Source: Thermoanaerobaculia bacterium (GTDB lineage Bacteria > Acidobacteriota > Thermoanaerobaculia > Multivoradales > JAGPDF01). From it: a stretch of DNA of 64,000 nt. The stretch covers positions 4,173 to 68,172 of the forward strand of contig JANNGS010000042.1 in assembly GCA_031403995.1 (NCBI GenBank). The letters are read 5' to 3'. A program made the position numbers and the translations under genes. This document shows positions 856-63,278 of this stretch, piece by piece. The notes beneath the pieces were generated by a model, which had not been told where the DNA came from, searched no databases, and was given only the letters and a program-made list of their open reading frames with translations. Each line of letters starts with the position of its first letter. The first letter of the stretch is position 1.

Positions 856-885
856 CGGAGCGTCGGCTACTCTCTTCGGAAGCGG

Positions 886-3125: not shown

Positions 3126-3259
3126 TGGGACCTCCTCGAGCCTCCAGATGGGCGGGTGAAACGGGGCCGGATTTGGAGCCGGCCGGACGGCGGAATACTA
3201 ACACGCGGGTCCGCTATGATCCGGCGGTGCCCAACTTCTCCGGCGGCAGCGCGTTCGCG

Positions 3260-3517: not shown

Positions 3518-3525
3518 CAGCTTCC

Positions 3526-4401: not shown

Positions 4402-4459
4402 AGATTCGAGGGACTTTTCGCCGCCGGACGTTCTGCTAGACTTCGCGCGGTTTCTACCC

Positions 4460-4912: not shown

Positions 4913-4925
4913 GAGGAGTGGAGTC

Positions 4926-5261: not shown

Positions 5262-5328
5262 CCTGACGACAACCTCGGACCCGCCTTTCTCGCGCCTCGA
5301 CCCGCGCCTCGCCGGTTTTTCGGCGCAG

Positions 5329-49522: not shown

Positions 49523-50278
49523 ATGATTCGCCTGCTGGCCCAAGTCCGACGACCTGTGTTTCGCCAACCCCACAGCGGTTTCAGCCGCGTCCCCTTCGTC
49601 CAGGCCTGCACCCTGTCGTGGGACGGTCTCGAAACCACCGGTCTGATCTGCAACCTGTCGATTCTCGGGGTCTACGTTCATATGGAGGTGGAGCTAGAGG
49701 TCCAGCGCGAGGTGACCCTGCGCTTTCGCCTGCCGGACGAAGGACCGGAGATCGAGGCCGCCGCAATCGTCACCTGGGCCAACGATGCCTCGCCCGACAA
49801 CGCGACCGGTTTGCCCCAGGGCTGCGGGCTGCGCTTTCTGCGCGTCGAGCCGGACGCTCTGCGGCGGATCGCGGCGCTGGTGGCGCAGTATCTCGCCGCG
49901 CCCAGAGAGCAGGTTCAGCCGGGCGTCGGCCAGCCGTTCACCGCCAAAGTCCGGATTCCGTTCATCGCCGCCTGCAGGCTCACCGGCCGCTTCGGGACGC
50001 GCCGCGGCAGCGTTTGCAATCTGAGTGTCGTCGGCGTTTACGTCGCCCTCGAGCAGATTCCGGCGCCGGGCGCGCGCGGGCGGATCGCCTTCCGCCTGCC
50101 GCGGAGCGAGAGCGAGCTCGAGACTGATTTCAAGGTGACCTGGCAGAACCCCGACATCCCGAACCGCATGCTGGCGTTGCCGCCCGGCTGCGGCCTGCAC
50201 TTCGAGAACCTCGGGGTGCGCGAGGAGAAGCTGCTCATCGAGCTCGTCAACGAGTATCAGCACGCGATCGCGGAATGA
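49523..50278 (+). CDS. tandem PilZ-domain protein
   Basis: Two copies of RxxxR ... (D/N)xSxxG: RRPVFR / NLSILG and RLTGR / NLSVVG. Confidence 0.65.
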   Translation: MIRLLAQVRRPVFRQPHSGFSRVPFVQACTLSWDGLETTGLICNLSILGVYVHMEVELEVQREVTLRFRLPDEGPEIEAAAIVTWANDASPDNATGLPQGCGLRFLRVEPDALRRIAALVAQYLAAPREQVQPGVGQPFTAKVRIPFIAACRLTGRFGTRRGSVCNLSVVGVYVALEQIPAPGARGRIAFRLPRSESELETDFKVTWQNPDIPNRMLALPPGCGLHFENLGVREEKLLIELVNEYQHAIAE

Positions 50279-51128
50279 GCGACGCCTTCTCGCCTGCGCG
50301 CCCGCCCAGCTCGACTCCGGCCGCGGCGAGCGCCGCCTCGACCTGAGCCGCCCAGCCCCGGTTCGCCGCCGGGGAGGCCGGGCTGGGGTGGGGAATGCGC
50401 GCGATCGCGACTCCGTGCGCTTCGAGCCCCCAGCATCCAGGCGCTTGGCCAGACGCCCGGCGCACGGCCGCCTCGGCGAAGGCGCCGACTGCGATGACCT
50501 GGCGCACGCCGAGCGCGTGGACGACCTCGCCCAAGGCCGCGTCGCAAACCGACTCGAGCGCCGCGCGCTCGCCGCGCGGGAGCTTGTCGGGAGTCAGATT
50601 GCGGCCGCCTTCATCGAGGAATCCGAGCGGACACCAGTTCCAGACGAAGGCGCGGGCGAAGAAGTGCTCGGGGGTGCTGAAGCGGGCCCGCGCCCAGCCC
50701 CACAAGCGCGCCCCCGAGACCTCGCTGCGCTGGCAGGCGAAGCCCTCCACCGGTCGCTTCGGGTGTTCAGCGGGCGGTCGGGAGACCGCGCCTTCGATGC
50801 CGAGCCAGTCGCGTACCATGACGATCTCGCCGAACGGCACGCCGGTCTGCATCATGCCGAACGGACCGGGATTCATGCCGACGAAGAGGAGCTCCTTCGG
50901 ACCGCTGCCCCAGCGCTCGAGATAGCACTCGAGCGGTTCGCGGGCGTAGACCAGCGGGTTGTAGACGTAGGCGACCGGCGGCGCGAAGGCGAGTTGCCCG
51001 GCAGCGGCGGCGAGCCGGCGCGAAATCGCGACGAGCGGCGACTGCGGACCGCTCGTAGCGTTCGAAACGTTCGGAACGATCTGAACGCCCCCCCGGGTCG
51101 CTGCGGCGGGCCGCGCGGCGTCTGGCAT
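50247..51128 (-). CDS. SMUG1-family uracil-DNA glycosylase (UDG family 3)
   Basis: Internal ATG (MPDAARP...) of a 1034-aa artefactual ORF. Motif A LLFVGMNPGPFGMMQTGVPFG and motif B HPSPASPAANRGW. Confidence 0.75.
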   Translation of the reverse strand: MPDAARPAAATRGGVQIVPNVSNATSGPQSPLVAISRRLAAAAGQLAFAPPVAYVYNPLVYAREPLECYLERWGSGPKELLFVGMNPGPFGMMQTGVPFGEIVMVRDWLGIEGAVSRPPAEHPKRPVEGFACQRSEVSGARLWGWARARFSTPEHFFARAFVWNWCPLGFLDEGGRNLTPDKLPRGERAALESVCDAALGEVVHALGVRQVIAVGAFAEAAVRRASGQAPGCWGLEAHGVAIARIPHPSPASPAANRGWAAQVEAALAAAGVELGGRAGEKASLIPRSRADTR

Positions 51129-51176
51129 GGCACGGGAGCGTAACAGTCGCGACGGAAGATAGGATCGGTCGCGATC

Positions 51177-51818
51177 TTGAGCTACTCCGTTCTCACCGAC
51201 TATCCCCGGCGGGCGCACTTCGAGTTTTACCGCGCGCATCCCTCGCCTTTCTACGCGGTGACTTTCGAGCTCGACGCCACTCGCCTGCGCGAGGTCCTCG
51301 CGGACGAAGGGGCGCCTGTCTACGCCGGCCTGTGCTGGCATTTCCATCGCGCGCTGGTGGCGCTCCCGGCCTTCCGCGTGCGCCTGCACGGGGAGGAGCT
51401 GGTGCGCTACGACACGCTGAAGATGGGCATGACGGTCCCCGCGCCGCAGCGGACTTTCACCTTCGCGACCTTCGAGTGGGAGGCGGACTGGCGCAGCTTC
51501 GCCGGCAGTGCCCGAGGTGTCCTCGCCAAGGCCTCGGAGAGGGTCGATCTCTCGGGCGGCAAGGCGCCCGACTTCGCTTACTACACCTCGCTGCCGAAGG
51601 TGCCTTTCACCGCCTTCGCGCACGTCGCACTTGCCGATCCGACGGCGGGCCAGCCGGAGACGGCGTTCGGCCGGATCGTGGATCGCTCGGATCGCGCGGA
51701 GCGCTCGAATCGCTCGGTGGTCCCGGTCGGGGTGCAGGTGAACCACCTGTTCATCGACGGCGGCGATCTGGGCGACCTCTTCGAGGCCGCCCAGGCGAGC
51801 TTCGACAACCCCGGCTGA
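51177..51818 (+). CDS. chloramphenicol-acetyltransferase-like (CAT family) protein
   Basis: 213 aa. C-terminal VQVNHLFIDGGDL resembles the CAT HHxxxDG active-site region. Assignment by pattern only. Confidence 0.45.
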   Translation: MSYSVLTDYPRRAHFEFYRAHPSPFYAVTFELDATRLREVLADEGAPVYAGLCWHFHRALVALPAFRVRLHGEELVRYDTLKMGMTVPAPQRTFTFATFEWEADWRSFAGSARGVLAKASERVDLSGGKAPDFAYYTSLPKVPFTAFAHVALADPTAGQPETAFGRIVDRSDRAERSNRSVVPVGVQVNHLFIDGGDLGDLFEAAQASFDNPG

Positions 51819-51854
51819 GGCGACTCCCGGAGCGGCCGGAGTAGAATTCGCGCC

Positions 51855-53381
51855 ATGGCGAAAGAATCGTCGGTCGTCCTCCAGGGTGTTGCGCGGGTGC
51901 AGGGCGAGCGTCCGGCGCTCGAGTTCGGTAGCGCCTGGGAGTACTCGCCGGCGCCTGAGTCGACCTCTCACGTTCGTCTCCAGAAGCGCTACGACCTGTT
52001 CATCGGCGGCAAGTTCGTCGCGCCAAAGTCGGGCCGGTACTTCGACACCGTGAATCCGGCGACGGAGGAGAAGCTCGCCGAGGTCGCCGAGGCCGGCGAG
52101 GCCGACGTCGAGGCCGCCGTCCGCGCCGCTGAAGTGGGACTGCGCGCCTGGTCGAAGTTGAAGCCGATCGAGCGCGGCAAGTACCTCTACCGCATCGCCC
52201 GCCTGCTGCAGGAGAAGGCGCGCGAGTTCGCGATTCTCGAGACGATGGACGGCGGCAAGCCGATCAAGGAGTCGCGCGACGTCGACATCCCGCTCGCCGC
52301 GGCGCACTTCTTCTACCACGCCGGGTGGGCGGACAAGCTGGCGTATGTCTTCCCGGGGAGCGGCGCCACGGGCCCGAGGGTGCCGCGACCGATCGGCGTC
52401 TGCGGCCAGATCATCCCGTGGAACTTCCCGCTCCTCATGGCGGCGTGGAAGATCGCCCCGGCGCTCGCCTGCGGCAACACGGTGGTGCTCAAGCCGGCCG
52501 AGACGACGCCGCTCACCGCGCTGCACCTGGCGAAGATCTTCGAGGAGGCCGAGCTCCCGGCGGGGGTCGTCAACATCCTGCCGGGTGCCGGCGAGACCGG
52601 CGCGCACCTCGTGAACCACCCGCGGGTGAAGAAGATCGCCTTCACCGGCTCGACCGAGGTCGGCAAACTCATCCAGCGCGCCACCGCGGCATCGGGCAAG
52701 CGCCTCACCCTCGAGCTCGGCGGCAAAGCGGCGAACATCGTCTTCGCCGACGCCGCGCTCGACCAGGCGGTCGAGGGCATCGTCAACGGCATCTACTTCA
52801 ACCAGGGGCACGTCTGCTGCGCCGGCTCGCGGCTGCTGGTCGAAGAGTCGGTGGCCGATGCGGTCATCGCCAAGCTCGACTGGCGGATCCGCCAGCTCCG
52901 CGTCGGCGATCCGCTCGACAAGAACACCGACGTTGGCGCGATCAACTCGCGCGCCCAGCTCGAGAAGATCCGCGAGATGACCGCCTACGGCGTCGAAGAA
53001 GGCGCGCTCCTGCATCAGTCTTCCTGTGCGCTGCCGGAGCGCGGTTTCTTCTTCCCGCCGACCTACTTCACCGAGGTCGCGCAGTCGCACCGCATCGCCC
53101 GCGAGGAGATCTTCGGCCCGGTGCTGGCGGTGATGACCTTCCGCACCGCCGACGAGGCGATCGAGAAAGCGAACAACCTCGAATACGGCCTCTCGGCCGG
53201 GGTCTGGACCGACAAGGGCGCCAAGGTCTTCGCGATGACCAAGCGCCTGAAGGCCGGCGTCGTCTGGGCGAACACCTTCAACAAGTTCGACCCCACCAGC
53301 CCCTTCGGCGGCTACAAAGAGTCCGGCTTCGGCCGCGAAGGTGGCCTCCACGGTCTCGAGGCGTATCTGGACCTCGGCTAG
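51855..53381 (+). CDS. NAD(P)-dependent aldehyde dehydrogenase
   Basis: ALDH motifs FTGSTEVGK, ELGGKA and catalytic Cys region GQVCCAGSR. Confidence 0.9.
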   Translation: MAKESSVVLQGVARVQGERPALEFGSAWEYSPAPESTSHVRLQKRYDLFIGGKFVAPKSGRYFDTVNPATEEKLAEVAEAGEADVEAAVRAAEVGLRAWSKLKPIERGKYLYRIARLLQEKAREFAILETMDGGKPIKESRDVDIPLAAAHFFYHAGWADKLAYVFPGSGATGPRVPRPIGVCGQIIPWNFPLLMAAWKIAPALACGNTVVLKPAETTPLTALHLAKIFEEAELPAGVVNILPGAGETGAHLVNHPRVKKIAFTGSTEVGKLIQRATAASGKRLTLELGGKAANIVFADAALDQAVEGIVNGIYFNQGHVCCAGSRLLVEESVADAVIAKLDWRIRQLRVGDPLDKNTDVGAINSRAQLEKIREMTAYGVEEGALLHQSSCALPERGFFFPPTYFTEVAQSHRIAREEIFGPVLAVMTFRTADEAIEKANNLEYGLSAGVWTDKGAKVFAMTKRLKAGVVWANTFNKFDPTSPFGGYKESGFGREGGLHGLEAYLDLG

Positions 53382-53395
53382 TTCAGTGCTAGACG

Positions 53396-54634
53396 TTGAG
53401 CCTTCAGCAGCTTCCTGATCGCGTGCACCTGGAGCCAGTAGAGATGCCCTACGAGACTTTTAGAGTTCAGCGGGCAGCCCGTGAGCCAATCGCCAAGTGG
53501 ATGATCGAGGCTCTGGAGCTCTCAGGTTGTCGCTTGCTCTTCGCCTCTGAACTGGACAAGGCCCCATTCAGGTATACGTTCGAGACTCCGATGGGAGAGC
53601 GCATTGGTATCGTCGCTTACGCGTTTCTGGCGAATTCGAGAGCGACAAAGAACCGACCGGCGGACGAACATCGGTTTCAGATCAAGTACGGCGGTAAAGA
53701 CGATCGAACGCACGAGATCTTCCAAGATCCGTTTCAGCTCTACACAACAATATTTGTCGGAATCAATCCAGAGAGTGGGTTTTTCGTTGCCGCAGATCCC
53801 ACGATACACAGCCCAACGCGGTTCTTCATCTCATTGGAGTTCAAGCAACATGACGTTGATCGCGCATTGAAGACCGGATGGGCAAGCTGGGAGCGATCGA
53901 GGTTAGGTACTAGAGTTGCCCGAATTGAAGAGCCGATCGAGGTTCTTGTTGCTGGCACAAAGAAGAACTTCTTACGCCTCATTCGGTTTGAGCGCGCTGC
54001 AGTCGGGCTAGATCCGGGCCACCGTCAGTTACTTGCCGAGAAGTTTGGAGAAGAATCGCTGCTCAGGCTCCCGAAGCTCGCGGCGAAACCCACGACCTCC
54101 AAAGGCTTGAAAGTTCCGCACTCGATTGCTCAAGAATTCCAGCTGGAGCAATCAGAGATTCTTGACCTCATTCAGAGCGCCCCTCGCCTCAAGATGGCAG
54201 TAAGAGGATGGGTGGCTGAAGAGCAGCTTCGGAGGAAGCTTGTGACCATTCCCGGTGTAGAGGACTGCGTCCGAATGGAAACAGAAGGTGGAGCGGACCT
54301 TCGACTGCGATATTTAGGGAGCCGAAAGCTAGAGGTGGAGTGCAAGAACGTACTCCGTCAAACGCTTGCCGACGGGACGATCCGGTTAGACTTTCAGCGC
54401 ACACGAGCTTCGAAGAGCGATCCCTGTTCACGCTACTACGCGGCCAAGGATTTTGACATCGTTGCTGCGTGCCTTCACTCGCGCACCGAGCGATGGGAAT
54501 TCCGTTATGTTCTCACCGGAGCGCTCGATGCCCACGCCGTTTGCAAGGGCAAGCTGGATCATCGTGTTCGGCTCGACGATCGCTGGACAAGCAATGTTCA
54601 GAAGGTCTTGGAGGCCGCAGCCTCGTCGACGTAA
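53396..54634 (+). CDS. putative Type II restriction endonuclease (PD-(D/E)xK, C-terminal catalytic domain)
   Basis: 412 aa in a lower-GC patch, convergent with a C5-MTase. C-terminal ...EGGADLRLRYLGSRKLEVECKNVLRQTL... fits D-x13-ExK. The CK(D/N)x(W/L)RQxL segment is reminiscent of EcoRII-C-type enzymes. The N-terminal 280 aa have no recognisable domain. Confidence 0.5.
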   Translation: MSLQQLPDRVHLEPVEMPYETFRVQRAAREPIAKWMIEALELSGCRLLFASELDKAPFRYTFETPMGERIGIVAYAFLANSRATKNRPADEHRFQIKYGGKDDRTHEIFQDPFQLYTTIFVGINPESGFFVAADPTIHSPTRFFISLEFKQHDVDRALKTGWASWERSRLGTRVARIEEPIEVLVAGTKKNFLRLIRFERAAVGLDPGHRQLLAEKFGEESLLRLPKLAAKPTTSKGLKVPHSIAQEFQLEQSEILDLIQSAPRLKMAVRGWVAEEQLRRKLVTIPGVEDCVRMETEGGADLRLRYLGSRKLEVECKNVLRQTLADGTIRLDFQRTRASKSDPCSRYYAAKDFDIVAACLHSRTERWEFRYVLTGALDAHAVCKGKLDHRVRLDDRWTSNVQKVLEAAASST

Positions 54635-54662
54635 ATCACCCTTCGTCGCGCTTCGAGCAGGA

Positions 54663-56420
54663 TCACCCTATTGCGGTTTGGACAGGAGCCACAGGAGCAT
54701 CGACACTTCGACGTCGAGATGCTCCAAAGCCCTTCCCCGTTCCAGGGTGAGCGTCGTGGACTCCGACCAAAGAGCGATACCTGGCAGGGACCCTTGAGAC
54801 TGGCTCAGGCGCCGGGATCGGGCGATTCGGTTGGGGAAGGAGTGTGGCTTCCTGCGAGAGGGTGTCGGCAAGAAGCTGGGTGCGTATGGCGCGAGCCAGC
54901 ACCTCTGCGAGTCCAGATGGGACTGCATTCCCAAGTTGGCGCTGAACCGAAGTGAGGTTTCCAGAGATTCGATAGCCCTCGGGAAATGTCTGTAGCCTGC
55001 ATAGTTCTCGCGGTGAGAGCCGTCGGTTCTTCCAGTGGAACGGACCAACAGCAGGTCCTGGTTGAGCCTGTAGAGTCCAAGAAGGGCGGTTCTTCGCAAG
55101 CTTGAGGAGGAATGTCCAAAACCGGCGCCGCCACCCAAAGAGCGGGAGGCCGTGCCCGCGCTCCGTATGCCAGAGATAGTTTTCTCCCTCCGGGATCGTG
55201 GGGAGCAAGTCAGCCCACTTGCCTCGCGCTCCGAGATCTTCCGAAGCCACTTCCTCAAGGTCTCCGATTGCATCCCAAGCGGTCAAGTATGGAGCCCCAC
55301 CGAGTAATGGAAATCCCTTTTCTGGATCGAAGTGAGTCGGGTCCGGGAACTCAAATCGGTGTCCGTCTCGTGAACCGACCACGAACACGCGCTCACGAGT
55401 CTGTGGAACACCGTAGTCGGCAGCGTTCAGTTGCGCAACTTGAATCGAGTAGTTCACACATCTTGCTCTATTGATCTCTTCGATGGTCCTGCGAACGAGC
55501 TCTAGGCCCTCACTCTTGCCCTTGAAAGCGAGTCCAGGGACGTTCTCGAGCAAGAATGCCCTCGGAAGAGTGTCTCGAAGTACTCGAAGATAGGCGCCAA
55601 TAGTCCCTGCCCGTGCATCGTCGAGCCGAAGCGAATCGCCCGTCGACCAGTAACCTGCCTTTGAGAAGGGCTGACAGGGTGGCCCTCCGATCAGGATGTC
55701 CGCCTCGCCGATTGTGAGGCCAGCAGTAGCCAGCAGTTCCTCTGAGCCGATTGTGTGAATGTCCCGGTCAATTACAGGCCACTTGCGATTGGCGCGGAGG
55801 GTCTCTACAGCGTCGCGGTCAAGCTCTACAGCGACTCTCGTTTCGAAGCCGGCAGCCTCGAAGCCAAGATCCAGCCCACCTGCGCCGCTAAAGAGGCTGA
55901 TCACCGAACGGGGGAGTTGATGGGCGGTCGGAGACTTCATGATTACGCCCTGTTTACGCCATTCTCGCGCCTTTGTCAAGTGGTGCGCCACATGCGCGGC
56001 TGCCGCAACCGGATCGCGCTTTATATCGGATTCCCACAAGCGCACAACGGTAAATCCCTGCAATCGCAGCTGCTTACTTACTCGTCGATCTCTCGCTCTA
56101 TTCGCGGCAATCTTCGACACCCAATAGCTGGCGTTGTTGCCCTTTTCCAATAGCTTCCGCCGATGGTTCCAGTTGCGGCCATGCCAGAAGTCCCCGTCGC
56201 AGAAGACCGCGACCTTGAGGCGCGGGAACACGAAGTCCGGTTTTCCGGGGATCGATTCACTGTTCCGCGAAGGGCGTACGCGAATCCTCCGAAGCGCGAG
56301 CTCTAGGGCAGTCTCGCATTGCGTCCCTCGCTTTCGACTAGATCCACGTGCGGCCTTAGAGGCCTGCTCAGTGGACGGCAGTCGCCCTTTGAATCGAGGA
56401 GCCTTGGGAATCGGAGCCAT
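54663..56420 (-). CDS. Vsr (very-short-patch-repair endonuclease) domain fused in frame to a DNA (cytosine-5)-methyltransferase
   Basis: N-terminal 150 aa: Vsr pattern SESIPGKPDFVFPRLKVAVFCDGDFWHGRNW...NASYWVSKIAANRARDRRVSKQLRLQGFTVVRLWESD. Then C5-MTase motifs I (SLFSGAGGLDLGF), IV (GGPPCQPFSKAG), VI (ENV), VIII (QLNAADYGVPQTRERVFVVG). No stop between the domains. Internal ATG at 55940 (MKSPTAH...) is an alternative MTase start. Confidence 0.8.
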   Translation of the reverse strand: MAPIPKAPRFKGRLPSTEQASKAARGSSRKRGTQCETALELALRRIRVRPSRNSESIPGKPDFVFPRLKVAVFCDGDFWHGRNWNHRRKLLEKGNNASYWVSKIAANRARDRRVSKQLRLQGFTVVRLWESDIKRDPVAAAAHVAHHLTKAREWRKQGVIMKSPTAHQLPRSVISLFSGAGGLDLGFEAAGFETRVAVELDRDAVETLRANRKWPVIDRDIHTIGSEELLATAGLTIGEADILIGGPPCQPFSKAGYWSTGDSLRLDDARAGTIGAYLRVLRDTLPRAFLLENVPGLAFKGKSEGLELVRRTIEEINRARCVNYSIQVAQLNAADYGVPQTRERVFVVGSRDGHRFEFPDPTHFDPEKGFPLLGGAPYLTAWDAIGDLEEVASEDLGARGKWADLLPTIPEGENYLWHTERGHGLPLFGWRRRFWTFLLKLAKNRPSWTLQAQPGPAVGPFHWKNRRLSPRELCRLQTFPEGYRISGNLTSVQRQLGNAVPSGLAEVLARAIRTQLLADTLSQEATLLPQPNRPIPAPEPVSRVPARYRSLVGVHDAHPGTGKGFGASRRRSVDAPVAPVQTAIG

Positions 56421-56546
56421 GCCTTTCGAGCTTACCCTAGGAACTGGCGCGTGACTTTGAAGTAGTGGCGGTCGGTACTGGCTCAGTTTGAAATGGGCGC
56501 ACTCCGTGGTGGTGCCAGCGTCATGCGGGCCGGCCGGCGTCTGAGA

Positions 56547-58190
56547 TCAGAGCTGGCTCGCCGACCAGCGCGAGCTTCCCCCGCTGGCGAAGCCGTCGCA
56601 GAAGAGCGAGCCGCGCAGGACGATCTCGGCGCCGGCGGAATTGAGCCCCCCGATGTCCTCCTCCGGCGCCCCGACGGCGAGGTCGTCGTGGCCGTCGCCG
56701 TCGAAGTCCCCGGCGGCGAGCGCCCAGCCGAATGCGCTGGACTGATTGCCCGGCCCGGCAACGCCTTCCTGTCCCTCATAGAAGGTCCACGTGCGGGCCG
56801 CGGTCAGCCCTGAGCCGCCTCCCATCAGGATCGAGATCTGGCCGCTGTCGACCGCAGTCTGATCCTCGCGCGGCGTGCCGATCACCAGGTCGTCGCGCCC
56901 GTCGTTGTCGAAGTCGCCGGCAGCCAGGCTGAAGCCGAAGAGATCCTGCGCCTCGTCGTGCCCGGCGCCGATGACGTTGCCCTGCGCCAAGTACTGGGTG
57001 CGCGAGAGGTCGAAGCGGGACGGCGAGCCGTAGATGGTGAACGCCGCGCCAGTGTTGACGATCGAGTTGGCGGGACCGAGGTCTTCGAACGGGCTGCCGA
57101 TCGCGAGGTCGTCGTGGCCGTCGCCATCGAAGTCGCCCGCCGCCAGGGCCTGGCCGAAGAGGTCTCCGCCCTCGCTCTGGCCGCCGATGCTCGTCTCCTG
57201 CCAAAGTTCGTTTTCCGCGAAGAGCAGGCCCCACTGGCTGCCGAAGACGATCTGGATCGCCCCCACGCCAGCCTCTCCCGGAACTCCGATGGCCAGGTCG
57301 TCGTAGCCGTTGGCGTCGAAGTCCCCGGTCGCGAGAGCGGCGCCGAAGCGATCGCCGGCGTCAGGTGCGCCGAAGAGCCCGTCGAGACCCTGGTACATCC
57401 AGTAGCCGTAGAACGGCATGACCCCACCGATGCCGCCGTGCAGGACGATCACGCTACCGGCATTGTCGATGTCGCCGGAGAAGTCTTCCGGGGCGCCGAT
57501 CGCGAGGTCGTCGTAGCCGTCGCCGTCGAAGTCGCCCGCCGCCAGGGCAGTGCCGAAGTTGTCGCCGACCTCCGGGGCCCCGGGCAGCCCGTCCGCTCCC
57601 TGGCGGAGAAAATGTTCGCCCGTCGTCTCGATCCCACCCGGGAGACCGTAGTGGATCGACACGCCGCCCGACTGCGCGGCGCCGGTCTGGTTGTAAGGCA
57701 CACCGACCGCGAGGTCGTCGCGTCCGTCGCCGTTGAAGTCGCCGACCGCCAGGCGCAAGCCGAAGCTGTCCTGGTTTTGCGCCGGATCGGTGCTGCCGGG
57801 GAACTGCTGACTCAGCACGGTCTGGGCGAGCCCGCCGGCCAGGCCGCTCCCCGCGACGCCCCAGCGCACGACGACCAGGCCGCAGGCGAAGCAGTTACTG
57901 CCGACGAGGCCGTTATGGGAGGGTATCCCGGTGGCCAGGTCGGCCACTCCGTCGCCGTTGAAGTCGCCGGCCGCGACTGCGTAGCCGAACGTGTCGAAGG
58001 CCCCGGGAACGAAGAAGAGCAGGTCCTCGTTGCCGTACCATCTGCTGCCCACGGCGGAGAGTCCGACGGAGAGCGGTTGCGCGCCAGCAGGGTCGGCCAC
58101 CGGGAGAACGCAGAGGGCGCCGAGCGTGAGGACGAGAGCCTTCGCGCGAGCCGGGAGAGCGAGACGGAAGATGCGAATCCAGGTCTTCAT
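56547..58190 (-). CDS. FG-GAP (integrin-alpha-like) repeat protein, secreted
   Basis: Signal peptide MKTWIRIFRLALPARAKALVLTLGALCVLPVADPAGA. Seven or more repeats of GDFNGDGxDDLAxG. Confidence 0.8.
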   Translation of the reverse strand: MKTWIRIFRLALPARAKALVLTLGALCVLPVADPAGAQPLSVGLSAVGSRWYGNEDLLFFVPGAFDTFGYAVAAGDFNGDGVADLATGIPSHNGLVGSNCFACGLVVVRWGVAGSGLAGGLAQTVLSQQFPGSTDPAQNQDSFGLRLAVGDFNGDGRDDLAVGVPYNQTGAAQSGGVSIHYGLPGGIETTGEHFLRQGADGLPGAPEVGDNFGTALAAGDFDGDGYDDLAIGAPEDFSGDIDNAGSVIVLHGGIGGVMPFYGYWMYQGLDGLFGAPDAGDRFGAALATGDFDANGYDDLAIGVPGEAGVGAIQIVFGSQWGLLFAENELWQETSIGGQSEGGDLFGQALAAGDFDGDGHDDLAIGSPFEDLGPANSIVNTGAAFTIYGSPSRFDLSRTQYLAQGNVIGAGHDEAQDLFGFSLAAGDFDNDGRDDLVIGTPREDQTAVDSGQISILMGGGSGLTAARTWTFYEGQEGVAGPGNQSSAFGWALAAGDFDGDGHDDLAVGAPEEDIGGLNSAGAEIVLRGSLFCDGFASGGSSRWSASQL

Positions 58191-58247
58191 GCTCACTACG
58201 CGCAGACCGGCACGCTCGCGGCTCACGGCGCAGGTCCCGCGGGTGGG

Positions 58248-59024
58248 CTACTGCGTCTTCTCGAGGATCACTGGCAGCGCCAGGCGGTAGAAGAACCAGG
58301 CGAGCGGCAGGGCGAGGGCGGTGGCGGCGGTCATCCAGAGGGCCCCACTCCAGTTGGTGGAGCTTCCGAGCGCGGCGAGGTCCCTGGTGAGGCCGAGGAG
58401 CGGGGTGACCGGGTTCCACGCGACGAGGGTGCGGAAAAGGCCGGTTTTGGGGACGGCGTAGAAGACCGGGGTCATGAAGAACCAGAAGGTGGTCACCGCC
58501 TGGAGGCCCTTGCCGACGTCGTGGTAGAGGGCGTGGAGCGGTGCGAGGACGAGGCCCAGCGCGGTGCCGAGGAGAGCCAGGACGACGAGCGGCAGCGGCG
58601 CCAGGACGACCGTCCACGGCACGCCCTGCCGCAGGAAGAGGAAGACCACCGCGACCACCAGGAGCTTCGGGGCGACATTGACCAGCACGCGCGCCAGTGC
58701 GGCGCCGATGAGGCTCTCCGGCGGCAGGTCGAGCTTGGCGAGCAGCGCGCGCTCGGAGGCGAGGGTCTCGATCTGCACCTGGATCGACTCGACGAAGGTC
58801 TGCCAGGCGACCAGGCCGAGCAGGACGAAGGCCGCGTAGGGGATGCCGGTGTCGCCGGCGTCGAGGATCTTCGCGCGGTCGGCGAGCACCGCCCAGAAGA
58901 CCATGCCGAGCGCCGGCAGGAAGGCGAGGAAGCCCCCGAGCAGCGTCTGCCGGTACTCGGCGTGCAGCTGGCGCAGGAGCATCTGGCGCGCCATCCCCGC
59001 CGAGGCGGCGAGGTCGCGCCGCAT
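58248..59024 (-). CDS. ABC-2 type transporter permease (Wzm/TagG-like)
   Basis: 258 aa from internal start MRRDLAASAGMARQMLLRQLHAEYRQTLLGGFLAFLPAL (the Wzm N-terminal pattern), then 6 TM helices. Alternative GTG start at 59087 overlaps the upstream stop. No ATPase gene adjacent. Confidence 0.65.
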   Translation of the reverse strand: MRRDLAASAGMARQMLLRQLHAEYRQTLLGGFLAFLPALGMVFWAVLADRAKILDAGDTGIPYAAFVLLGLVAWQTFVESIQVQIETLASERALLAKLDLPPESLIGAALARVLVNVAPKLLVVAVVFLFLRQGVPWTVVLAPLPLVVLALLGTALGLVLAPLHALYHDVGKGLQAVTTFWFFMTPVFYAVPKTGLFRTLVAWNPVTPLLGLTRDLAALGSSTNWSGALWMTAATALALPLAWFFYRLALPVILEKTQ

Positions 59025-59083
59025 CTGGACGAACAGCCGGCGATGGCGGTCGCGCCCGGCGTCGGGCTGGTAGACGATCTCGT

Positions 59084-60448
59084 TCACGATTCGGACTCCT
59101 GATCCTCGAGCCGGGTCTCGAGCCAGCGCCAGACCGCCCAGTCGCGGTCGCCCCAGTGGTGATAGACGTGCACGAGGTAGGGTCTCACGAAGCCCGGGCG
59201 GCCGGCGAAGCTGAAGCCGCGAACGGCATCGAAGCTCAATCCGGGCTTGTGGTAGTCGGCGAGGAAGTTGAACTCCCTGGGCAGCGTCGCCTGGTCCTGC
59301 AGGCCGTGCTTCCAGGCTGCGGCGACGAGTGTCCCCTGGTCGCGCGTCTTCCAGCGCGGCAGGTCGAAGCTCTGCAACGTGAGCTCGTGCCAGGTGTCGA
59401 GGAACCTCGCCGCTTCCGAGTCGGGCCGGGCGTCGAACAGGAAGACGCCGCCGTTCCAGTGCTGCCAGTCGGGATCCGTGATCGTGACTCCGAAGTCCTC
59501 CGCGATCGCTGCACGCAGATGGTCGCAGGGGCCGTGGAAGACCCGCTCGCCGGCGCCGTCGACCCACTCGTCGCGCGCCTCGTCGAAGCGGAACTCGCTC
59601 TGCTTCGCGACGTAGAACGGCACGTCGGTGAGCAGCAGGCGCCCCGCTTCGTCGTAGCCCCGCCGCTCGTCGAGGCGCCAGTCGAAGCCGAGCTCGCGCC
59701 GGATGAACTCCGGCAGGGTCCCCAGGGCATCGTCGATGACGGAGTTGGCGGCCTGGGTCGGATCGCCGCCACGCCAAAGGCGGCGCGTCAGACGCGCGCC
59801 GAACCTCGGCAGGACGAACGCGAGGAGCGCGGCCCGGCGTTGGAGCGGATGCCCGGCGGAGCGTTCGAGCAGCCGGCGCACCGTCTCGCGGCGCGCGGCG
59901 AGCTCCGGAGCGGGTGAGCGGTAGCGCGCGGAGTAGGCCTCGAGCTTCGTCTGCAGCCGGCGCCGCTTGTCCACGAGCTCCGGCGGGCAGGCGTCGAGCG
60001 GTTCGATCAGCGCGTTGAGCGCCTCCGCCTGGGCGAGACGGCGGTCCGACAGGCAGCCGCAGTCGACCGCCCACGGGCTGAAGTAGCGCATGCGGCAGTG
60101 GTCGGTGGCAAAGGTCACCGGGCCGAAGCGGTACATGAAGACCTGATCGACGCCGGGGCGCGCCGCAACTACGTCGGTGTCGAGGTAGCAGTAGCGCTGC
60201 TCCGGATCGAGGATGCGGTGCAGCGAGGTCTTGAGGAAGATCGCCGCCTGCGCGTCGGAGAGCGCCTCCGGCGCCGGCGAGTCGATCACCCGGTCGTGGG
60301 CGATCGGGAGCGCGTTGCGGCGCGCGTCGGTCACCACGACGATCGGGTTGTCGGCGAACTTCCGCAGGTGGCGGAGCGCGATCTCGAGCGCCTCGAGGTG
60401 CGCCGCCGCGCCGCAGGCGACGAAGACGAACCGTTCCTCGGTGCTCAC
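59084..60448 (-). CDS. hypothetical protein, possible GT-A-like glycosyltransferase (DxD)
   Basis: GTG at 60448 (GTGA overlap with the asnB-like stop). ...IVVVTDARRN...CYLDTDVV... suggests a nucleotide-sugar transferase fold. Weak. Confidence 0.45.
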   Translation of the reverse strand: MSTEERFVFVACGAAAHLEALEIALRHLRKFADNPIVVVTDARRNALPIAHDRVIDSPAPEALSDAQAAIFLKTSLHRILDPEQRYCYLDTDVVAARPGVDQVFMYRFGPVTFATDHCRMRYFSPWAVDCGCLSDRRLAQAEALNALIEPLDACPPELVDKRRRLQTKLEAYSARYRSPAPELAARRETVRRLLERSAGHPLQRRAALLAFVLPRFGARLTRRLWRGGDPTQAANSVIDDALGTLPEFIRRELGFDWRLDERRGYDEAGRLLLTDVPFYVAKQSEFRFDEARDEWVDGAGERVFHGPCDHLRAAIAEDFGVTITDPDWQHWNGGVFLFDARPDSEAARFLDTWHELTLQSFDLPRWKTRDQGTLVAAAWKHGLQDQATLPREFNFLADYHKPGLSFDAVRGFSFAGRPGFVRPYLVHVYHHWGDRDWAVWRWLETRLEDQESES

Positions 60449-62202
60449 GTCAGCCACTCCCGGTACCAGAGCTCGAGCACCGCGACCTTCCACAGACGCC
60501 AGTGATCCGCGGTGGCGAAGAGGGCCTCGACTGCCGGCCCCTGGAGGACGCCGTCGCGCACCAGCCGGGAGTCGCCGAGCAGCGCCCTGTACCAGGCGAC
60601 GTTCTGGTAGTAGCTGTCCGGCCCGACGAAGCCCTGCTTGGTGCGCTGCAGGATCGACTCCGGGAGCCTGCCGGCGAGGTTCGCCCTGAGCAGCGGCTTC
60701 TGCTCCCCGGCCCGGAAGTAGACCTCCGGGTCGAAGCCGAAGAGCAGCTCGACCAGCTCGTGATCGAGGAACGGCACCCGCACCTCGAGGGAGTTGGCCA
60801 TGCTCGCACGGTCCACTTTGGTCAGCACCAGCTCGCCCATGAACGCTTTGAGGTCGAGCCATTGGATGCGCTGCAGCGGCGGCAGCTCGGGCCGCACGAG
60901 GCCGCGGTAGAACCACCACGGGTCGTCCGGCAGGTGGGCGTGGAGATCGGGGTGGAGGAGGCCGGCGAGTCGGTCGCGGTCGAAGCTCCCCATCGCCATG
61001 GCCCCAGCGTAGAAGGCCACCAGGTCGTTCGTCGATGGGTTGCCGGCGGCCGGGGCTCCGAGCGTGGACATGAAGTCGCGCTGCCAGGTGTAGCCACAGA
61101 AGATCTCGTCGGCGCCCTCGCCCGAGAGCACCGCCTTGACCCGGCGCGCGGCGAGATGGGAGACCGCGAAGGTGGGCACAGTCGAGATGTCGGCGAGCGG
61201 CTCGTCATAAACCCGGGCGAGGCGATGCACGAGCGCCAGGCTCTCGGGGCCGAGCACCCGGCTGTGATGCTCGAGGCCGAACTGCGCCGCCACCAGCTCG
61301 GCGTAGCGGTGCTCGCTTCCCGGCCAGTCCGTGAAACCGATCGCGAAGGTCTCGGCGCGGTAGCCGATCCGGTCGAGATAGAGGACCAGCGCCGAGGAGT
61401 CGTAGCCGCCGGAGAGAAACGAGCCGAGGGCGACGTCGCTCTCCAGATGCCGGCGCACGGCGCTCTCGAGCTGGGCGTCGACCGCGGTGACGGCGTCGTC
61501 GAACGGCAGCTGCCGGTCGCCCGGGGGCAGCGTCCAGTACTCGCGGACCGTCAGTGTGCCCTCGCGTCCGAAGCGCAGCGAGCAGGCCGGCGGCAGCTTC
61601 GCCAGTCCTTTGAAGATGCACTTCGGGCTCGGCACGTAGCGGTAGACGAGGTAGTCGCAGACCGCCGTCCAGTCGACCTCGCGGGGGACCGCCGGATGCG
61701 CCAGCAGGGCCTTCGCCTCGGAGGCGAAGAGCAATCGGTCGCCATCCGCGAAGTAGTAGAGCGGCTTGATCCCGAAACGGTCGCGGGCGAGGAAGAGCTC
61801 CTGCTCCTGATCGTCCCAGAGTCCGAACGCGAACATGCCCGACAGCCGCTCGAGGACGCCGCGGCCCCACTCCTCGTAGCCGTGGAGCACGACCTCGGCA
61901 TCGCAGGCCGAGCGGAAGCGGTGACCGCGCGCTTCGAGCTGCCGTCGCAGCTCGCGGTGGTTGTAGATCTCGCCGTTCAGCGTGAGCCAGAGACGTTGGT
62001 CTTCGGACGGCATCGGCTGGTGGCCGGCGGAGGAGAGGTCGAGAAACGACAGCCGGCGATGTCCGAGCCCCACCCGCCCGCTGGGCGAGAGCCAGCTGCC
62101 GGCGTCGTCCGGACCGCGGTGCTCGAGACTGTCGCGCATCGCCGCCAGGCGGTCGCGATCGACGCTCCCCCGCAGCTCGACCTGTCCCACGATGCCGCAC
62201 AC
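60445..62202 (-). CDS. asparagine synthetase (glutamine-hydrolysing) family amidotransferase
   Basis: MCGIVG N-terminal nucleophile and the SGGYDSS PP-loop. Confidence 0.85.
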   Translation of the reverse strand: MCGIVGQVELRGSVDRDRLAAMRDSLEHRGPDDAGSWLSPSGRVGLGHRRLSFLDLSSAGHQPMPSEDQRLWLTLNGEIYNHRELRRQLEARGHRFRSACDAEVVLHGYEEWGRGVLERLSGMFAFGLWDDQEQELFLARDRFGIKPLYYFADGDRLLFASEAKALLAHPAVPREVDWTAVCDYLVYRYVPSPKCIFKGLAKLPPACSLRFGREGTLTVREYWTLPPGDRQLPFDDAVTAVDAQLESAVRRHLESDVALGSFLSGGYDSSALVLYLDRIGYRAETFAIGFTDWPGSEHRYAELVAAQFGLEHHSRVLGPESLALVHRLARVYDEPLADISTVPTFAVSHLAARRVKAVLSGEGADEIFCGYTWQRDFMSTLGAPAAGNPSTNDLVAFYAGAMAMGSFDRDRLAGLLHPDLHAHLPDDPWWFYRGLVRPELPPLQRIQWLDLKAFMGELVLTKVDRASMANSLEVRVPFLDHELVELLFGFDPEVYFRAGEQKPLLRANLAGRLPESILQRTKQGFVGPDSYYQNVAWYRALLGDSRLVRDGVLQGPAVEALFATADHWRLWKVAVLELWYREWLT

Positions 62203-62229
62203 GGAAGCTCGCCTCAGTCCGCGGGCGGC

Positions 62230-63264
62230 TCAGAAATCGGCGGCATGGACGAAGTTCTCGCGCAGCACCGAGAGGTTGCGGGGAATCTTGGCGAGCCCCT
62301 TGGGGAACAGGGCGAAATGCAGCGGCAGGAGGGGCCAGAGCTCACCGTGACGTGCGACCGCGATGGCGAGCACGGTGGGCGGCAGCCACTCTTCGTAGAA
62401 GTCATTCAGGAAGTAGAGGAACTTGAAGCGCAGCTGGCGCCGCGGCAGATAGGGGAGCTTCCACGCCGAGAACATCAGCGCGGTGAAGGCGAGAAAGGCG
62501 ACGAACCCCACCCAGACCGGCGCCGCCGGGGCGAGCAGCACCAGGGCTGCGGCGAGAGCGCCGACCTCGAGCGGCAGGAGGAGGCGGTTGATCAGGGCGA
62601 GTGCGCGCACCGGACCGCGGGCGAGGACGAAGGTGCGCAGGCCGGCGCGGCGGTCGTTCTCCCGGTCCGCGAGCTGATGCAGGAGGATGTTGCGCAGCCC
62701 CTTGCAGGTGAGGACGATCCCGGTCAGGGCGAGGATCGGCACGGCCGTCCGGGAGCCCCGGGCCGCCGCCAGACTCCGCAGGGGCTCGGGGAAGAAGGTG
62801 AAGAGTGCGATCGCCACCGGCAGGAGATGGCCGTAGAGTGTGTCCGCCAGGACGCCGGCGAGGCCGCGCTCCTTGAGCCTCAGGGGTCGCGCCGAGTAGA
62901 TCGTCAGCATACCGATCTGCAGGGCGAGAAGAGTGAGATTGCCCGGATGGCGCGGCAGCAAGAGCCAGGGCGCGAGTCCGAACGCCAGCAGGCCGAGGAG
63001 GATCGCAGCGTGCGCCGCCGGCCCGCGTGCGGCGGCGGCGTTGGCCTTGCCGGCGGCACGATCGGCGGCGATGTCGCAGGCGTCGTTGAGGAAATAGCCG
63101 AAGCCCGCGATGCCGACGACGCTCGCCACGAAGGGCGGCAACAGCCCGACGAGCTCGCCGGGAGGCAGCGCTGCCACGGCGGTGGCGAGGTAGGCGGCGG
63201 CGAGGACCGGCGGCACGATGTGCTGCCACCAGAGAGAGAAGCGGAGGAGCCCCGGGCCAGGCAT
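62230..63264 (-). CDS. UbiA-family prenyltransferase
   Basis: Internal ATG (MPGPGLLRF...). NDxxDxxxD motif FLNDACDIAADR. 8-9 TM helices. Confidence 0.75.
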   Translation of the reverse strand: MPGPGLLRFSLWWQHIVPPVLAAAYLATAVAALPPGELVGLLPPFVASVVGIAGFGYFLNDACDIAADRAAGKANAAAARGPAAHAAILLGLLAFGLAPWLLLPRHPGNLTLLALQIGMLTIYSARPLRLKERGLAGVLADTLYGHLLPVAIALFTFFPEPLRSLAAARGSRTAVPILALTGIVLTCKGLRNILLHQLADRENDRRAGLRTFVLARGPVRALALINRLLLPLEVGALAAALVLLAPAAPVWVGFVAFLAFTALMFSAWKLPYLPRRQLRFKFLYFLNDFYEEWLPPTVLAIAVARHGELWPLLPLHFALFPKGLAKIPRNLSVLRENFVHAADF

Positions 63265-63278
63265 TGGGAGGCGGGAGT

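Follow-up and report, generated by a model that had tools for sequence, protein, structure and literature searches.

A low-GC two-gene cassette in a Thermoanaerobaculia chromosome resembles a Type II restriction-modification system with a Vsr-C5 methyltransferase fusion

A compact patch of DNA lying between an aldehyde dehydrogenase (ALDH) gene and a gene for an FG-GAP repeat protein is probably a horizontally acquired, self-contained Type II-like restriction-modification (R-M) cassette with an attached mutation-avoidance (Vsr) function. It sits in a 64,000-nucleotide stretch of Thermoanaerobaculia DNA, here called the window, and holds two convergent genes: ORF1, for a predicted two-domain restriction endonuclease, and ORF2, for a fusion of a Vsr domain to a C5 cytosine methyltransferase (Table 1). 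The island is an ordinary kind of element with a few unusual details.

The patch is compositionally foreign to the host chromosome. In 300-bp windows, GC content is 0.50-0.62 across 53400-56549, compared to 0.64-0.75 in the flanks. The interval 53385-56450 (3066 bp) has a GC content of 57.2%, whereas non-overlapping windows of the same size average 69.2% (sd 1.8, minimum 65.0); it is the lowest in the 64 kb, about 6.6 sd under the mean. GC3 is 0.60 for ORF1 and 0.59 for ORF2, compared to 0.92 for ALDH, 0.88 for the FG-GAP gene, and 0.88 for the gene at 51177. A preliminary description of this DNA had put the GC by eye at about 55%, which is rightly lower than the flanks, although the computed value is about 57%; its account of exactly two convergent genes between ordinary high-GC chromosomal genes agrees with our figures. 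We likewise found no integrase or transposase ORF in or beside the island and only short, chance-level matches in a search for direct or inverted repeats flanking it. Searches for a tRNA at the island, an Rfam match within it, and a terminator-like hairpin in the spacer between the genes were also negative. Given the foreign composition together with a nuclease gene and a Vsr-methylase gene, the simplest reading is still the one first offered, a horizontally acquired R-M island.

Table 1 Features of the island and its flanks (window coordinates; ORF1 residues in the 412-aa numbering).
Feature	Coordinates	Strand	Basis
Aldehyde dehydrogenase gene (left flank, outside island)	51855..53381	+	PF00171, E 4e-165; GC3 0.92
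Left limit of island: ALDH stop codon	53379-53381
Whole island (3165 bp)	53382..56546	.	GC drop; identity in related strains 97-99% inside, 87-93% outside
Region 5' of ORF1 (62 bp)	53382..53443	+	GGAG 11-14 nt before ATG; contains spurious TTG-start extension 53396-53443
ORF1, predicted restriction endonuclease, two domains, 396 aa	53444..54634	+	homologue starts; public gene call
ORF1 N-terminal MTaX1 domain, residues 17-205	53444..54010	+	Pfam match spans 53609-53977
Variable inter-domain linker, residues 206-240	54011..54115	+	variable alignment columns; pLDDT <50 at residues 226-238
ORF1 C-terminal PD-(D/E)xK nuclease domain, residues 241-412	54116..54634	+	key residues and model
ORF1 key residue E275	54218-54220
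ORF1 key residue D301	54296-54298
ORF1 key residue E315	54338-54340
ORF1 key residue K317	54344-54346
Spacer (28 bp) between two convergent stop codons	54635..54662	.	ORF ends
ORF2, Vsr-C5 DNA methyltransferase fusion, 585 aa	54663..56420	-	profile matches; public gene call
Methylase C-terminal tail, residues 521-585, beyond Pfam domain	54666..54860	-	conserved PEPVxxVPxxYxxLxGxHxAHPGTGxG
C5 cytosine methyltransferase domain, residues 172-520	54861..55907	-	PF00145, TIGR00675, motifs
Fusion linker, residues 151-171, holds Met160	55908..55970	-	alignment of fused and unfused relatives
Vsr (T:G mismatch endonuclease) domain, residues ~18-150	55971..56369	-	PF03852; motifs KPD62F, D75-G-D77-F-W-H80
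Region 5' of ORF2 (126 bp), part of island	56421..56546	-	identity in L164-L166
Right limit of island: FG-GAP stop codon	56547-56549	-
FG-GAP repeat protein gene (right flank, outside island)	56547..58226	-	PF01839, E 2e-71; GC3 0.88

By domain content and motifs, the C-terminal part of ORF2 is a complete C5 cytosine methyltransferase and is predicted to be active. It matches PF00145 (192.1 bits against a cut-off of 22, E 2e-56) and TIGR00675 (177 bits against a cut-off of 100.65), as well as M.HaeIII and M.HhaI (E 1e-21 to 1e-31). The methylase motifs follow one another in canonical order, namely I (FSGAGG, 177-182), IV (GPPC249QPFS), VI (ENV, 292-294), VIII (Q340-T-R-E-R), IX (RRLSPRELCRLQTFP, 466-480), and X (GNAVP, 497-501); all six, including the catalytic Cys249, are invariant among 13 relatives. 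The target recognition region (residues ~360-465) gave no alignment to M.HaeIII or M.HhaI, and the recognition sequence could not be inferred from palindrome-depletion tests. We found no consensus promoter in the 126 bp upstream of the gene.

The N-terminal domain of ORF2 matches PF03852 (52 bits against a cut-off of 27) and falls just under the cut-off of TIGR00632 (95.8 against 97.85). In an alignment to E. coli Vsr (1cw0), D62 (KPDF), H80 (FWHG), and the aspartate of the RDRR motif match the catalytic residues, which we take to be Asp51, His69, and the Asp of RDRR in the E. coli enzyme. The structural zinc site of that enzyme, presumably formed by Cys66, His71, Cys73, and Cys117, is absent: GCFWHHHHC is replaced by GDFWHGRNW, with Cys66 changed to Asp and His71 to Arg. 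The CDGDFWHG form is kept throughout the fused clade. The domain is a variant of the Vsr family, not an E. coli-type Vsr, and its family membership predicts the mismatch endonuclease activity.

The fusion of Vsr to the C5 methylase, as first proposed for 54663-56420, is real and conserved: both profiles match within the one ORF, and the same arrangement recurs in four other assemblies from related strains (L083, L164-L166) and in relatives down to 55% identity. In-frame fusion is found only in the window's clade (P0121-P0127, P0209) and is the minority form, with family members usually encoding Vsr as a separate gene. In unfused relatives, a stop codon and a gap of 32-96 nt stand at the position of the linker, and Met160 is likely the ancestral start of the methylase.

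ORF1 was originally described as a 412-aa nuclease at 53396-54634. That ORF exists, but its true start is the ATG at 53444; homologues start there, and the public call of the identical sequence is 396 aa long. The 53396-53443 extension is not conserved as coding sequence, because L083 has a 1-bp indel there. Residue numbers nevertheless follow the 412-aa frame, in which Met17 is the real start. The 62 bp upstream of the gene contain no sigma-70 consensus that we could find.

The N-terminal 280 residues had been considered to have no assignable family, and we find the reverse: residues 72-194 match PF20296 (MTaX1; 70.7 bits against a gathering threshold of 25, profile positions 3-109 of 111), and it is the C-terminal nuclease half that has no match in Pfam, NCBIfam, PADLOC, PHROG, or PDB sequences. 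All 120 listed relatives of ORF1 carry PF20296, and the family is large and highly conserved, with more than 2000 proteins. To speak of an undescribed variant was therefore too strong for a family of this size with a named Pfam domain at its N-terminus and a reported occurrence of MTaX1 in R-M systems (PMC10853773). The listed relatives are named "hypothetical protein" throughout, and in the literature we found no biochemical data on any member of the ORF1 family and no experimental study of MTaX1 proteins. ORF1 belongs to a widespread type of putative cutting enzyme known only from sequence.

By fold and motif, the C-terminal domain of ORF1 is a canonical PD-(D/E)xK nuclease and should cleave DNA. 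Its core has the alpha-beta-beta-beta-alpha-beta fold that the superfamily requires, and E275, D301, E315, and K317 are invariant across 30 sequences. In the structural model, E275 lies on the helix formed by residues 263-283, D301 just before the strand 302-306, and E315-C-K317 on the strand 311-323. Four cysteines, C316, C344, C359, and C383, are also invariant. The MTaX1 domain is probably a divergent, non-catalytic version of the restriction-endonuclease-like fold that serves in target binding, methylation discrimination, or oligomerization. We regard it as non-catalytic because stand-alone MTaX1 proteins (~205 aa) lack the candidate acidic and lysine motifs of the ORF1 family.

Those same motifs raise the alternative that both domains are catalytic, each cutting one strand, so that a monomer makes a double-strand break. 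Such tandem double nucleases exist, as in Mva1269I and BtsI-type enzymes. Within the ORF1 family, the MTaX1 residues E68, D90, E91, Q95, K97, D134, E148, and K150 are invariant, and Q95-I-K97 could be the equivalent of the QxK motif variant used by BisI-family enzymes (PMC11347163). However, D90/E91/Q95/K97 and E148/K150 are not conserved in the stand-alone proteins, and D134 and E148-x-K150 lie at strand ends, not at canonical positions. We consider a second active site unlikely.

The pairing of ORF1 with the methylase is conserved well beyond the window. Among 81 metagenomic loci that carry a relative of ORF1, 74 place an orthologous C5 methylase (57-77% identity) beside it, and five of the remaining seven are not long enough to judge. 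Vsr is encoded at 56 of the 81 as well, which leaves about 30% of loci without it. Gene order varies: with X for the ORF1 relative, M for the methylase, and V for Vsr, we observed M-X-V, X-M-V, V-X-M, V-M-X, and X facing M-V. The identities of the ORF1 and methylase relatives to the window's proteins co-vary (r = 0.59), and a Rathayibacter plasmid carries a 32%-identical ORF1 relative beside a C5 methylase. Neither protein contains an ATPase, helicase, or specificity-subunit domain, and there is none between them. The island has the separate, adjacent endonuclease and methylase genes with conserved pairing by which Type II systems are recognized.

If ORF1 were instead a modification-sensing (Type IV/IIM-like) or methylation-directed nuclease, MTaX1 would read methylated DNA, and the methylase would be kept for a reason besides self-protection. 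MTaX1 may discriminate modified DNA (PMC10853773), and stand-alone MTaX1 genes adjoin a ResIII-helicase-DUF3427 protein, whose DUF3427 domain counts as modification-sensing in PMC6765204. Yet a near-obligate C5 methylase neighbor that co-varies with ORF1 across many gene orders marks a cognate R-M pair, and a nuclease dependent on 5mC would be toxic to its own host next to a 5mC methylase, unless the two differed in specificity. The only Pfam match in ORF1 is MTaX1; we detected no SRA, EVE/PUA, DUF3427, McrB N-terminal, or winged-helix reader domain, and PADLOC was negative. The match to NhoI is one to a generic nuclease fold, with similar scores for PvuII and ThaI. A modification-dependent ORF1 strikes us as very unlikely.

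Two loci, L158 and L160, have an intact ORF1 relative and no methylase within 4.6 kb downstream or 0.6 kb upstream, on short contigs. This is unexpected if the endonuclease is lethal, and it would fit a solitary methylase-Vsr module for epigenetic or repair functions in which ORF1 is an accessory repair or recombination nuclease, such as a resolvase of the Hjc/RecU type or a protein assisting very-short-patch repair. Vsr is itself a repair enzyme, and solitary C5 methylases with Vsr-like partners are known, Caulobacter ScmA being an example (PMC12907096). Against this, resolvase-like fold matches are usual for minimal PD-(D/E)xK domains, and it is the methylase that is almost always present while Vsr is often missing. 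In addition, the triad is compositionally foreign here, has a distant relative on a plasmid, and varies in gene order as mobile R-M systems do. An accessory role for ORF1 is accordingly a very improbable reading, and a cognate restriction endonuclease remains the one we prefer.

The only close relatives that we found, L083, L164-L166, and L170, all have the island, and L083 and L164-L166 carry both genes at the same chromosomal site. Presence at the same site had been expected to speak against acquisition; it does not refute a foreign origin, because the island is 97.3-98.7% identical in these relatives, compared to 87-91% for the adjacent ALDH. The 126 bp upstream of ORF2 are likewise 99.2% identical in L164-L166, compared to 87-93% for the 3' end of the FG-GAP gene. 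Values of dS are 0.040 for ORF1 and 0.077 for ORF2 but 0.385 for ALDH, so that the island lies 5-10 times under its flank, which is represented in this comparison by a 225-codon fragment of one gene and, on the opposite side, by 89 nt. The dN/dS ratios against L164 are 0.08 for ORF1 and 0.14 for ORF2, and both genes are therefore under purifying selection. A search for an empty site, with ALDH and the FG-GAP gene adjacent, had also been suggested, and none was found among the close relatives, ALDH relatives, or FG-GAP relatives examined; the best ALDH match among species-representative genomes (77% identical) and the FG-GAP relatives at 70-72% identity show no synteny. For this reason, our case for insertion is built on composition and divergence. 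That the genes are native and merely atypical in composition is extremely improbable: the shared site and the lack of an integrase, tRNA, or repeat would suit it, but GC3 is 30 points under that of every neighboring gene, no other 3-kb window in the 64 kb is as extreme, dS is far below that of the flank, and the closest relatives of both genes are scattered over Acidobacteriota, Myxococcota, and Gammaproteobacteria.

The island recalls EcoRII and the dcm-vsr genes of E. coli, where a Vsr repair endonuclease and a C5 cytosine methylase are likewise linked. In the EcoRII endonuclease, which has about 400 aa, an N-terminal domain binds DNA without cutting it and a C-terminal PD-(D/E)xK domain is catalytic; the R and M genes are convergent. 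The methylase-Vsr link, a two-domain endonuclease of ~400 aa, and convergent R and M genes all recur here. In contrast, the Pfam and PDB scans that made up the sequence comparison with EcoRII and dcm-vsr matched ORF1 neither to the N- and C-domain families of EcoRII nor to any PDB sequence. In E. coli, moreover, Vsr is a separate, overlapping downstream gene, whereas the island's Vsr is fused in frame at the N-terminus of the methylase. Another parallel is offered by Type II m5C R-M systems in which vsr is a linked gene of its own, among them the unfused relatives (L001, L085-L087, and others), which have the same three functions in proteins orthologous to the window's (51-67% identical for ORF1, 57-77% for the methylase, 28-55% for Vsr) but encode Vsr separately.

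FokI and other modular Type IIS/IIE enzymes follow a similar plan, with a separate recognition or effector domain tethered through a flexible linker to a small domain that cleaves; ORF1 shares this layout and matches the FokI recognition domains neither in sequence nor in fold. The nuclease domain resembles I-Ssp6803I (PDB 2ost) and archaeal Hjc resolvases at 16-23% identity, without a sequence-level match. These proteins serve in intron homing and junction resolution, and they lack the additional N-terminal domain and the four invariant cysteines of ORF1. As the family name implies, ORF1 is linked to a cytosine-5 methylase, in line with the methylase association that comparative genomics has noted for MTaX1 proteins (Krishnan et al. 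2020, as cited in PMC10853773). MTaX1 has been described in Dnd/Pbe-type and helicase-nuclease neighborhoods, with no mechanism given (PMC10853773); here, in contrast, it shares a polypeptide with an I-Ssp6803I-like PD-(D/E)xK nuclease, and the R-M cassette is a minimal one of two genes.

We propose that the methyltransferase domain of ORF2 would methylate cytosine within a specific short target on host DNA. The Vsr domain would nick 5' of the T in T:G mismatches left by deamination of 5-methylcytosine, leading to very-short-patch repair to C:G and offsetting the mutagenic cost of methylation. The fusion probably arose when the Vsr stop codon was lost and translation continued through the short spacer; it guarantees 1:1 co-expression of the two activities. 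ORF1 would be the cognate endonuclease, cutting DNA with its minimal, I-Ssp6803I/Hjc-like PD-(D/E)xK domain. On its flexible linker, the MTaX1 module would bind the target, detect its lack of methylation, and/or drive oligomerization, thereby restricting cleavage to incoming DNA that is unmethylated, a modular design akin to that of FokI or EcoRII. The cassette probably entered the chromosome as an R-M unit on its own, between two convergent host genes, and later spread among related lineages, with homologous recombination through the flanks as the likely route.

A more specific proposal, which we regard as possible though rather unlikely, is that MTaX1 is a new kind of sensor of methylation state, derived from a degenerate restriction-endonuclease fold, one that binds the methylase's target and allosterically licenses the tethered minimal, I-Ssp6803I-like nuclease only on unmethylated DNA. 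If so, the methylase could be coupled to the nuclease by a contact through its conserved C-terminal tail. The ORF1 family would then be a widespread, uncharacterized class of modular restriction enzymes that all share one conserved specificity; in this island, the enzyme is coupled to a methylase with a repair nuclease built in.

The stretch between the ALDH and FG-GAP genes stands out sharply in composition from its surroundings. The interval 53385-56450 has a GC content of 57.2%, compared with a mean of 69.2% (sd 1.8, minimum 65.0) for all same-length non-overlapping windows in the 64 kb; in 300-bp windows, GC is 0.50-0.62 across 53400-56549 versus 0.64-0.75 in the flanks. The same shift is seen at third codon positions, where GC3 is 0.60 in ORF1 and 0.59 in ORF2, as against 0.92 in the ALDH gene, 0.88 in the FG-GAP gene, and 0.88 in the gene starting at 51177. 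This drop is far beyond chance. The ORF list places just two genes here, ORF1 (a predicted restriction endonuclease) and ORF2 (a Vsr-C5 DNA methyltransferase fusion), which are convergent, with 28 bp between their stop codons. The preliminary description had proposed a lower-GC patch with two convergent genes, flanked by aldehyde dehydrogenase and FG-GAP repeat genes of higher GC and free of an integrase and direct repeats, and these points all hold: we found no integrase, meaningful flanking repeat, tRNA, or Rfam family in the island. A search for regulatory signals likewise returned no sigma-70-like promoter, no controller-protein ORF, and no terminator between the convergent genes.

Coordinates of the island and of neighboring genes in the window.
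Feature	Position	Strand	Remarks
Double-PilZ protein gene	49523-50278		
UDG-superfamily (uracil-DNA glycosylase-like) gene	50247-51062	minus	PF03167, E 1.4e-6
CAT-like acetyltransferase gene	51177-51818		
ALDH gene	51855-53381	plus	
Stretch between flanking stop codons	53382-56546		
ORF1	53396-54634	plus	412 aa as listed
ORF2	54663-56420	minus	585 aa
FG-GAP gene	56547-58226	minus	
ABC-2 transporter permease gene	58248-59183		
611-aa ORF	59084-60919	minus	no Pfam match

Two corrections apply. The limits set by the flanking stop codons are 53382 and 56546, and the other correction concerns the start of ORF1. Because its homologues start at the ATG at 53444, the public gene call for the exact protein is 396 aa long, and the supposed N-terminal extension carries a 1-bp indel in one related strain, we prefer this ATG (396 aa) to the TTG at 53396; residue numbers below follow the 412-aa version. 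Among the host genes, a 1034-aa ORF at 50247-53351 on the minus strand was rejected as a high-GC artefact antisense to ALDH, and the sole true gene in it is the UDG-like one at its 3' end.

The preliminary description had assigned no family to the N-terminal 280 residues of the nuclease and a PD-(D/E)xK fold to the protein. The first of these is reversed: residues 72-194 match PF20296, MTaX1 ("methylase-associated X1"), with 70.7 bits against a cut-off of 25, and it is the C-terminal half that has no match in Pfam, NCBIfam, PADLOC, or PHROGs. The whole protein has no match in the PADLOC, PHROG, and NCBIfam defense and phage libraries, and neither phmmer nor a 30-sequence profile finds a relative among PDB sequences at E values up to 10. 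The second claim is borne out by structure comparison. I-Ssp6803I and Hjc are structurally nearest to the nuclease core, and fold matches lower in the ranking include PvuII, ThaI, HhaI, and other PD-(D/E)xK enzymes; Foldseek agrees, with a match to 2ost (I-Ssp6803I; E 2.4e-3, prob 1.0). The layout of the C-terminal domain is canonical, with E275 on a long helix, D301 where the second strand begins, and E315-C-K317 on the third strand, and E275, D301, E315, and K317 are invariant in 30/30 sequences. Internal duplication within ORF1 was rejected, since an hhalign comparison of the N- and C-domain profiles found none (probability 0.04). The C-terminal domain (54116-54634) also contains four invariant cysteines, C316 (the x of the ExK motif), C344, C359, and C383, together with invariant H361 and H380, and this set of residues suggests that the nuclease domain may hold a structural metal site.

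The MTaX1 domain is a named but uncharacterized Pfam family whose methylase link is already on record. When 1.84 billion cluster representatives were searched exhaustively with the N-domain, only 280 matched at E ≤0.001. One group of these has two domains and about 390 aa, and the other consists of stand-alone MTaX1 proteins of about 205 aa. In the stand-alone forms, the hydrophobic core is retained along with motifs such as ADP, WER, and GHRxLLA, and DEHRFQxK and E148-x-K150, the candidate catalytic motifs of the ORF1 family, are not; for this reason we favor a non-catalytic role for MTaX1 such as target binding, methylation sensing, or oligomerization. In one JGI contig (L169, Ga0351829_11621692, 1-4514), a 246-aa DUF6968-like gene has a stand-alone MTaX1 gene on either side (207 and 242 aa), and the two MTaX1 genes adjoin a ResIII-helicase-DUF3427 protein. 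This arrangement points to MTaX1 being a mobile module that also occurs in helicase-type defense loci.

ORF1 belongs to a large family, with 2062 proteins at E ≤0.001 among the candidates scored, all of them named hypothetical. Identity is unusually high, at 56-77% between members from Acidobacteriota, Myxococcota, and Gammaproteobacteria. We took a census of 81 loci with an ORF1 relative, 80 of them metagenomic plus L001, which lies on a 3-Mb contig. An orthologous C5 methylase (57-77% identity) directly adjoins the ORF1 relative in 74/81, and a Vsr gene is also present in 56/81. Writing X for the ORF1 relative, M for the methylase, and V for Vsr, the gene orders are M-X-V (24 loci), X-M (14), V-X-M (8), X facing M-V (6), X-M-V (6), and V-M-X (6). 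The identities of the two partners to the proteins in the window co-vary (r = 0.59). Seven loci have no methylase match, and in five of these the contigs are too short to tell. Two short contigs, L158 (518-1744) and L160, carry an intact ORF1 relative with all catalytic residues, and the 4.6 kb downstream and 0.6 kb upstream of it contain no cytosine methylase, which is odd for a restriction enzyme. The pairing extends to a distant relative (32% identity, annotated as hypothetical) on a 50-kb Rathayibacter sp. plasmid (NZ_CP047178.1, 36-38 kb), where the gene is divergent to a neighboring DNA cytosine methyltransferase gene, and the vicinity also has genes for thymidylate synthase, ImmA/IrrE, and HNH proteins. 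It is the one plasmid relative that turned up; there was no DNA match among plasmids and no protein match among phages. The cassette contains no ATPase, helicase, or specificity subunit, and this, together with the methylase pairing, gives the pattern expected for a putative Type II-like restriction-modification system with an accessory Vsr. In L001, the unfused cassette (4527-6942) is surrounded by toxin-antitoxin genes (AbiEii, PIN) and IS (rve) transposases, a typical defense and mobile-element neighborhood unlike the bare insertion in the window.

The fusion of Vsr to a C5 methylase in ORF2, as originally proposed, is confirmed at the level of domains, with Pfam matches to Vsr (PF03852, residues 27-85) and C-5 DNA methylase (PF00145, residues 173-512). 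The NCBIfam dcm model TIGR00675 scores 177 bits (cut-off 100.65), and the vsr model TIGR00632 falls slightly under its threshold (95.8 bits versus 97.85); matches among PDB sequences include M.HaeIII, M.HhaI, DNMT1, and E. coli Vsr. The six motifs diagnostic of such methylases, with the catalytic Cys249 among them, all occur in ORF2 and do not vary between relatives. When the Vsr part is aligned to E. coli Vsr, the equivalents of Asp51, His69, and the RDRR aspartate are kept, and the zinc ligands are replaced (GCFWHHHHC to GDFWHGRNW); the roles of these residues and ligands are those we take them to have in E. coli Vsr from the 1cw0 structure. Given the replaced ligands, this part is by alignment a Vsr-family variant, not an E. 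coli-type Vsr.

Could the fusion be an assembly error? It is found in independent assemblies of related strains (L083 and L164-L166), in an identical copy at a further locus (L170), and in relatives with as little as 55% identity (P0122-P0127, P0209). Judged by this recurrence among sequences, it is not. Methylase relatives are mostly unfused proteins of 405-440 aa; at these loci, Vsr is a separate gene that, when upstream, ends 32-96 nt before the methylase start. The most plausible origin of the fusion is thus that Vsr lost its stop codon, and Met160 in the linker is likely the ancestral methylase start. In the literature searched, we found no description of natural Vsr-methylase fusions, which does not prove that none exists. 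Beyond the Pfam methylase domain, a tail of about 50 aa follows motif X (residues 521-585, window 54666-54860). It is common to every methylase of the family, fused or unfused (P0122-P0186), with the motif PEPVxxVPxxYxxLxGxHxAHPGTGxG, in which about 17 residues are invariant. The tail might contact DNA or the partner nuclease.

Other samples (ERZ27280351, ERZ27280354, and ERR712377, a wastewater run) yielded short contigs with the same cassette at the same site. Outside the island, these contigs are 87-91% identical to the window in the 3' part of ALDH and 87-93% at the 3' end of FG-GAP; inside it, identity rises to 98.7% for ORF1, 97.3% for ORF2, and 99.2% for the 126-bp region upstream of ORF2. 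By the Nei-Gojobori method, ALDH has a dS of 0.385, compared with 0.040 for ORF1 (dN/dS 0.08) and 0.077 for ORF2 (dN/dS 0.14), so that, by this measure and over the short flanks compared, the island is much younger than its surroundings. The simplest reading of these short flanks is that the island was acquired once and then passed from one related lineage to another by homologous recombination in the flanking sequence. The preliminary description had counted the same two genes at this site in relatives against a foreign origin. Relatives do carry them there, but a foreign origin stands, given that dS in the island is far below that of the flank. The proposed comparison with relatives showed a shared site and no ALDH/FG-GAP junction lacking the island. 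In species-representative genomes, the ALDH protein matched 80 loci, of which the best is 77% identical and none has the FG-GAP or upstream genes nearby, and an exact-protein look-up of ALDH gave no match. Relatives of FG-GAP at 70-72% identity (L167, L168) show no synteny with the window; L168 does have an ALDH gene close to its FG-GAP gene, but this ALDH is an unrelated paralogue.

We also looked for the target site through Markov-corrected palindrome depletion. Across the host sequence in the window (1-53384 and 56451-64000), GGCC is the most depleted, with observed/expected of 0.75 (z -9.5); CTAG has a ratio of 0.26 in the same sequence. When the test was extended to 82 carriers of the system, with 391 kb of their flanks set against 1.15 Mb of control loci, it found no consistent depletion, and the strongest contrast was at TGGCA (0.71 versus 0.85). 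Since the GGCC depletion is missing from the flanks of other carriers, we did not link it to the cassette. The M.HaeIII match to ORF2 ends short of the target-recognition region. Any assignment of a site was rejected.

Taken with the domains and motifs described here, the methylase domain of ORF2 would mark a specific cytosine on host DNA, and the Vsr domain on the same polypeptide would repair T:G mismatches arising from 5mC deamination in that context. ORF1 would bind unmethylated targets through or with its MTaX1 domain and cut them with its PD-(D/E)xK domain, for which the fold and catalytic residues are in place. In functional terms, the closest parallel is EcoRII with Dcm-Vsr, where the endonuclease has two domains and about 400 aa, the R and M genes converge, and a C5 methylase is accompanied by Vsr. 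By Pfam, ORF1 falls outside the EcoRII families. The cassette is a known kind of system that is unusual in two minor respects, the fusion of Vsr in frame to the methylase and the architecture with two nuclease folds, and does not overturn the current understanding of restriction-modification.

It is nonetheless a clean, minimal, bare restriction-modification cassette, set between two chromosomal genes that converge, in a high-GC bacterium that is probably Thermoanaerobaculia-like and belongs to the Acidobacteriota. Its in-frame fusion is a natural experiment in which methylation is tied to repair of the mutagenic by-product that it creates. Its value is mainly practical, in that it points to a conserved, multi-phylum endonuclease family of more than 2000 sequences that is biochemically uncharacterized. 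Because the family is paired with one orthologous C5 methylase, cloning a single system would probably be enough to give thousands of database entries a recognition site and MTaX1 a function.
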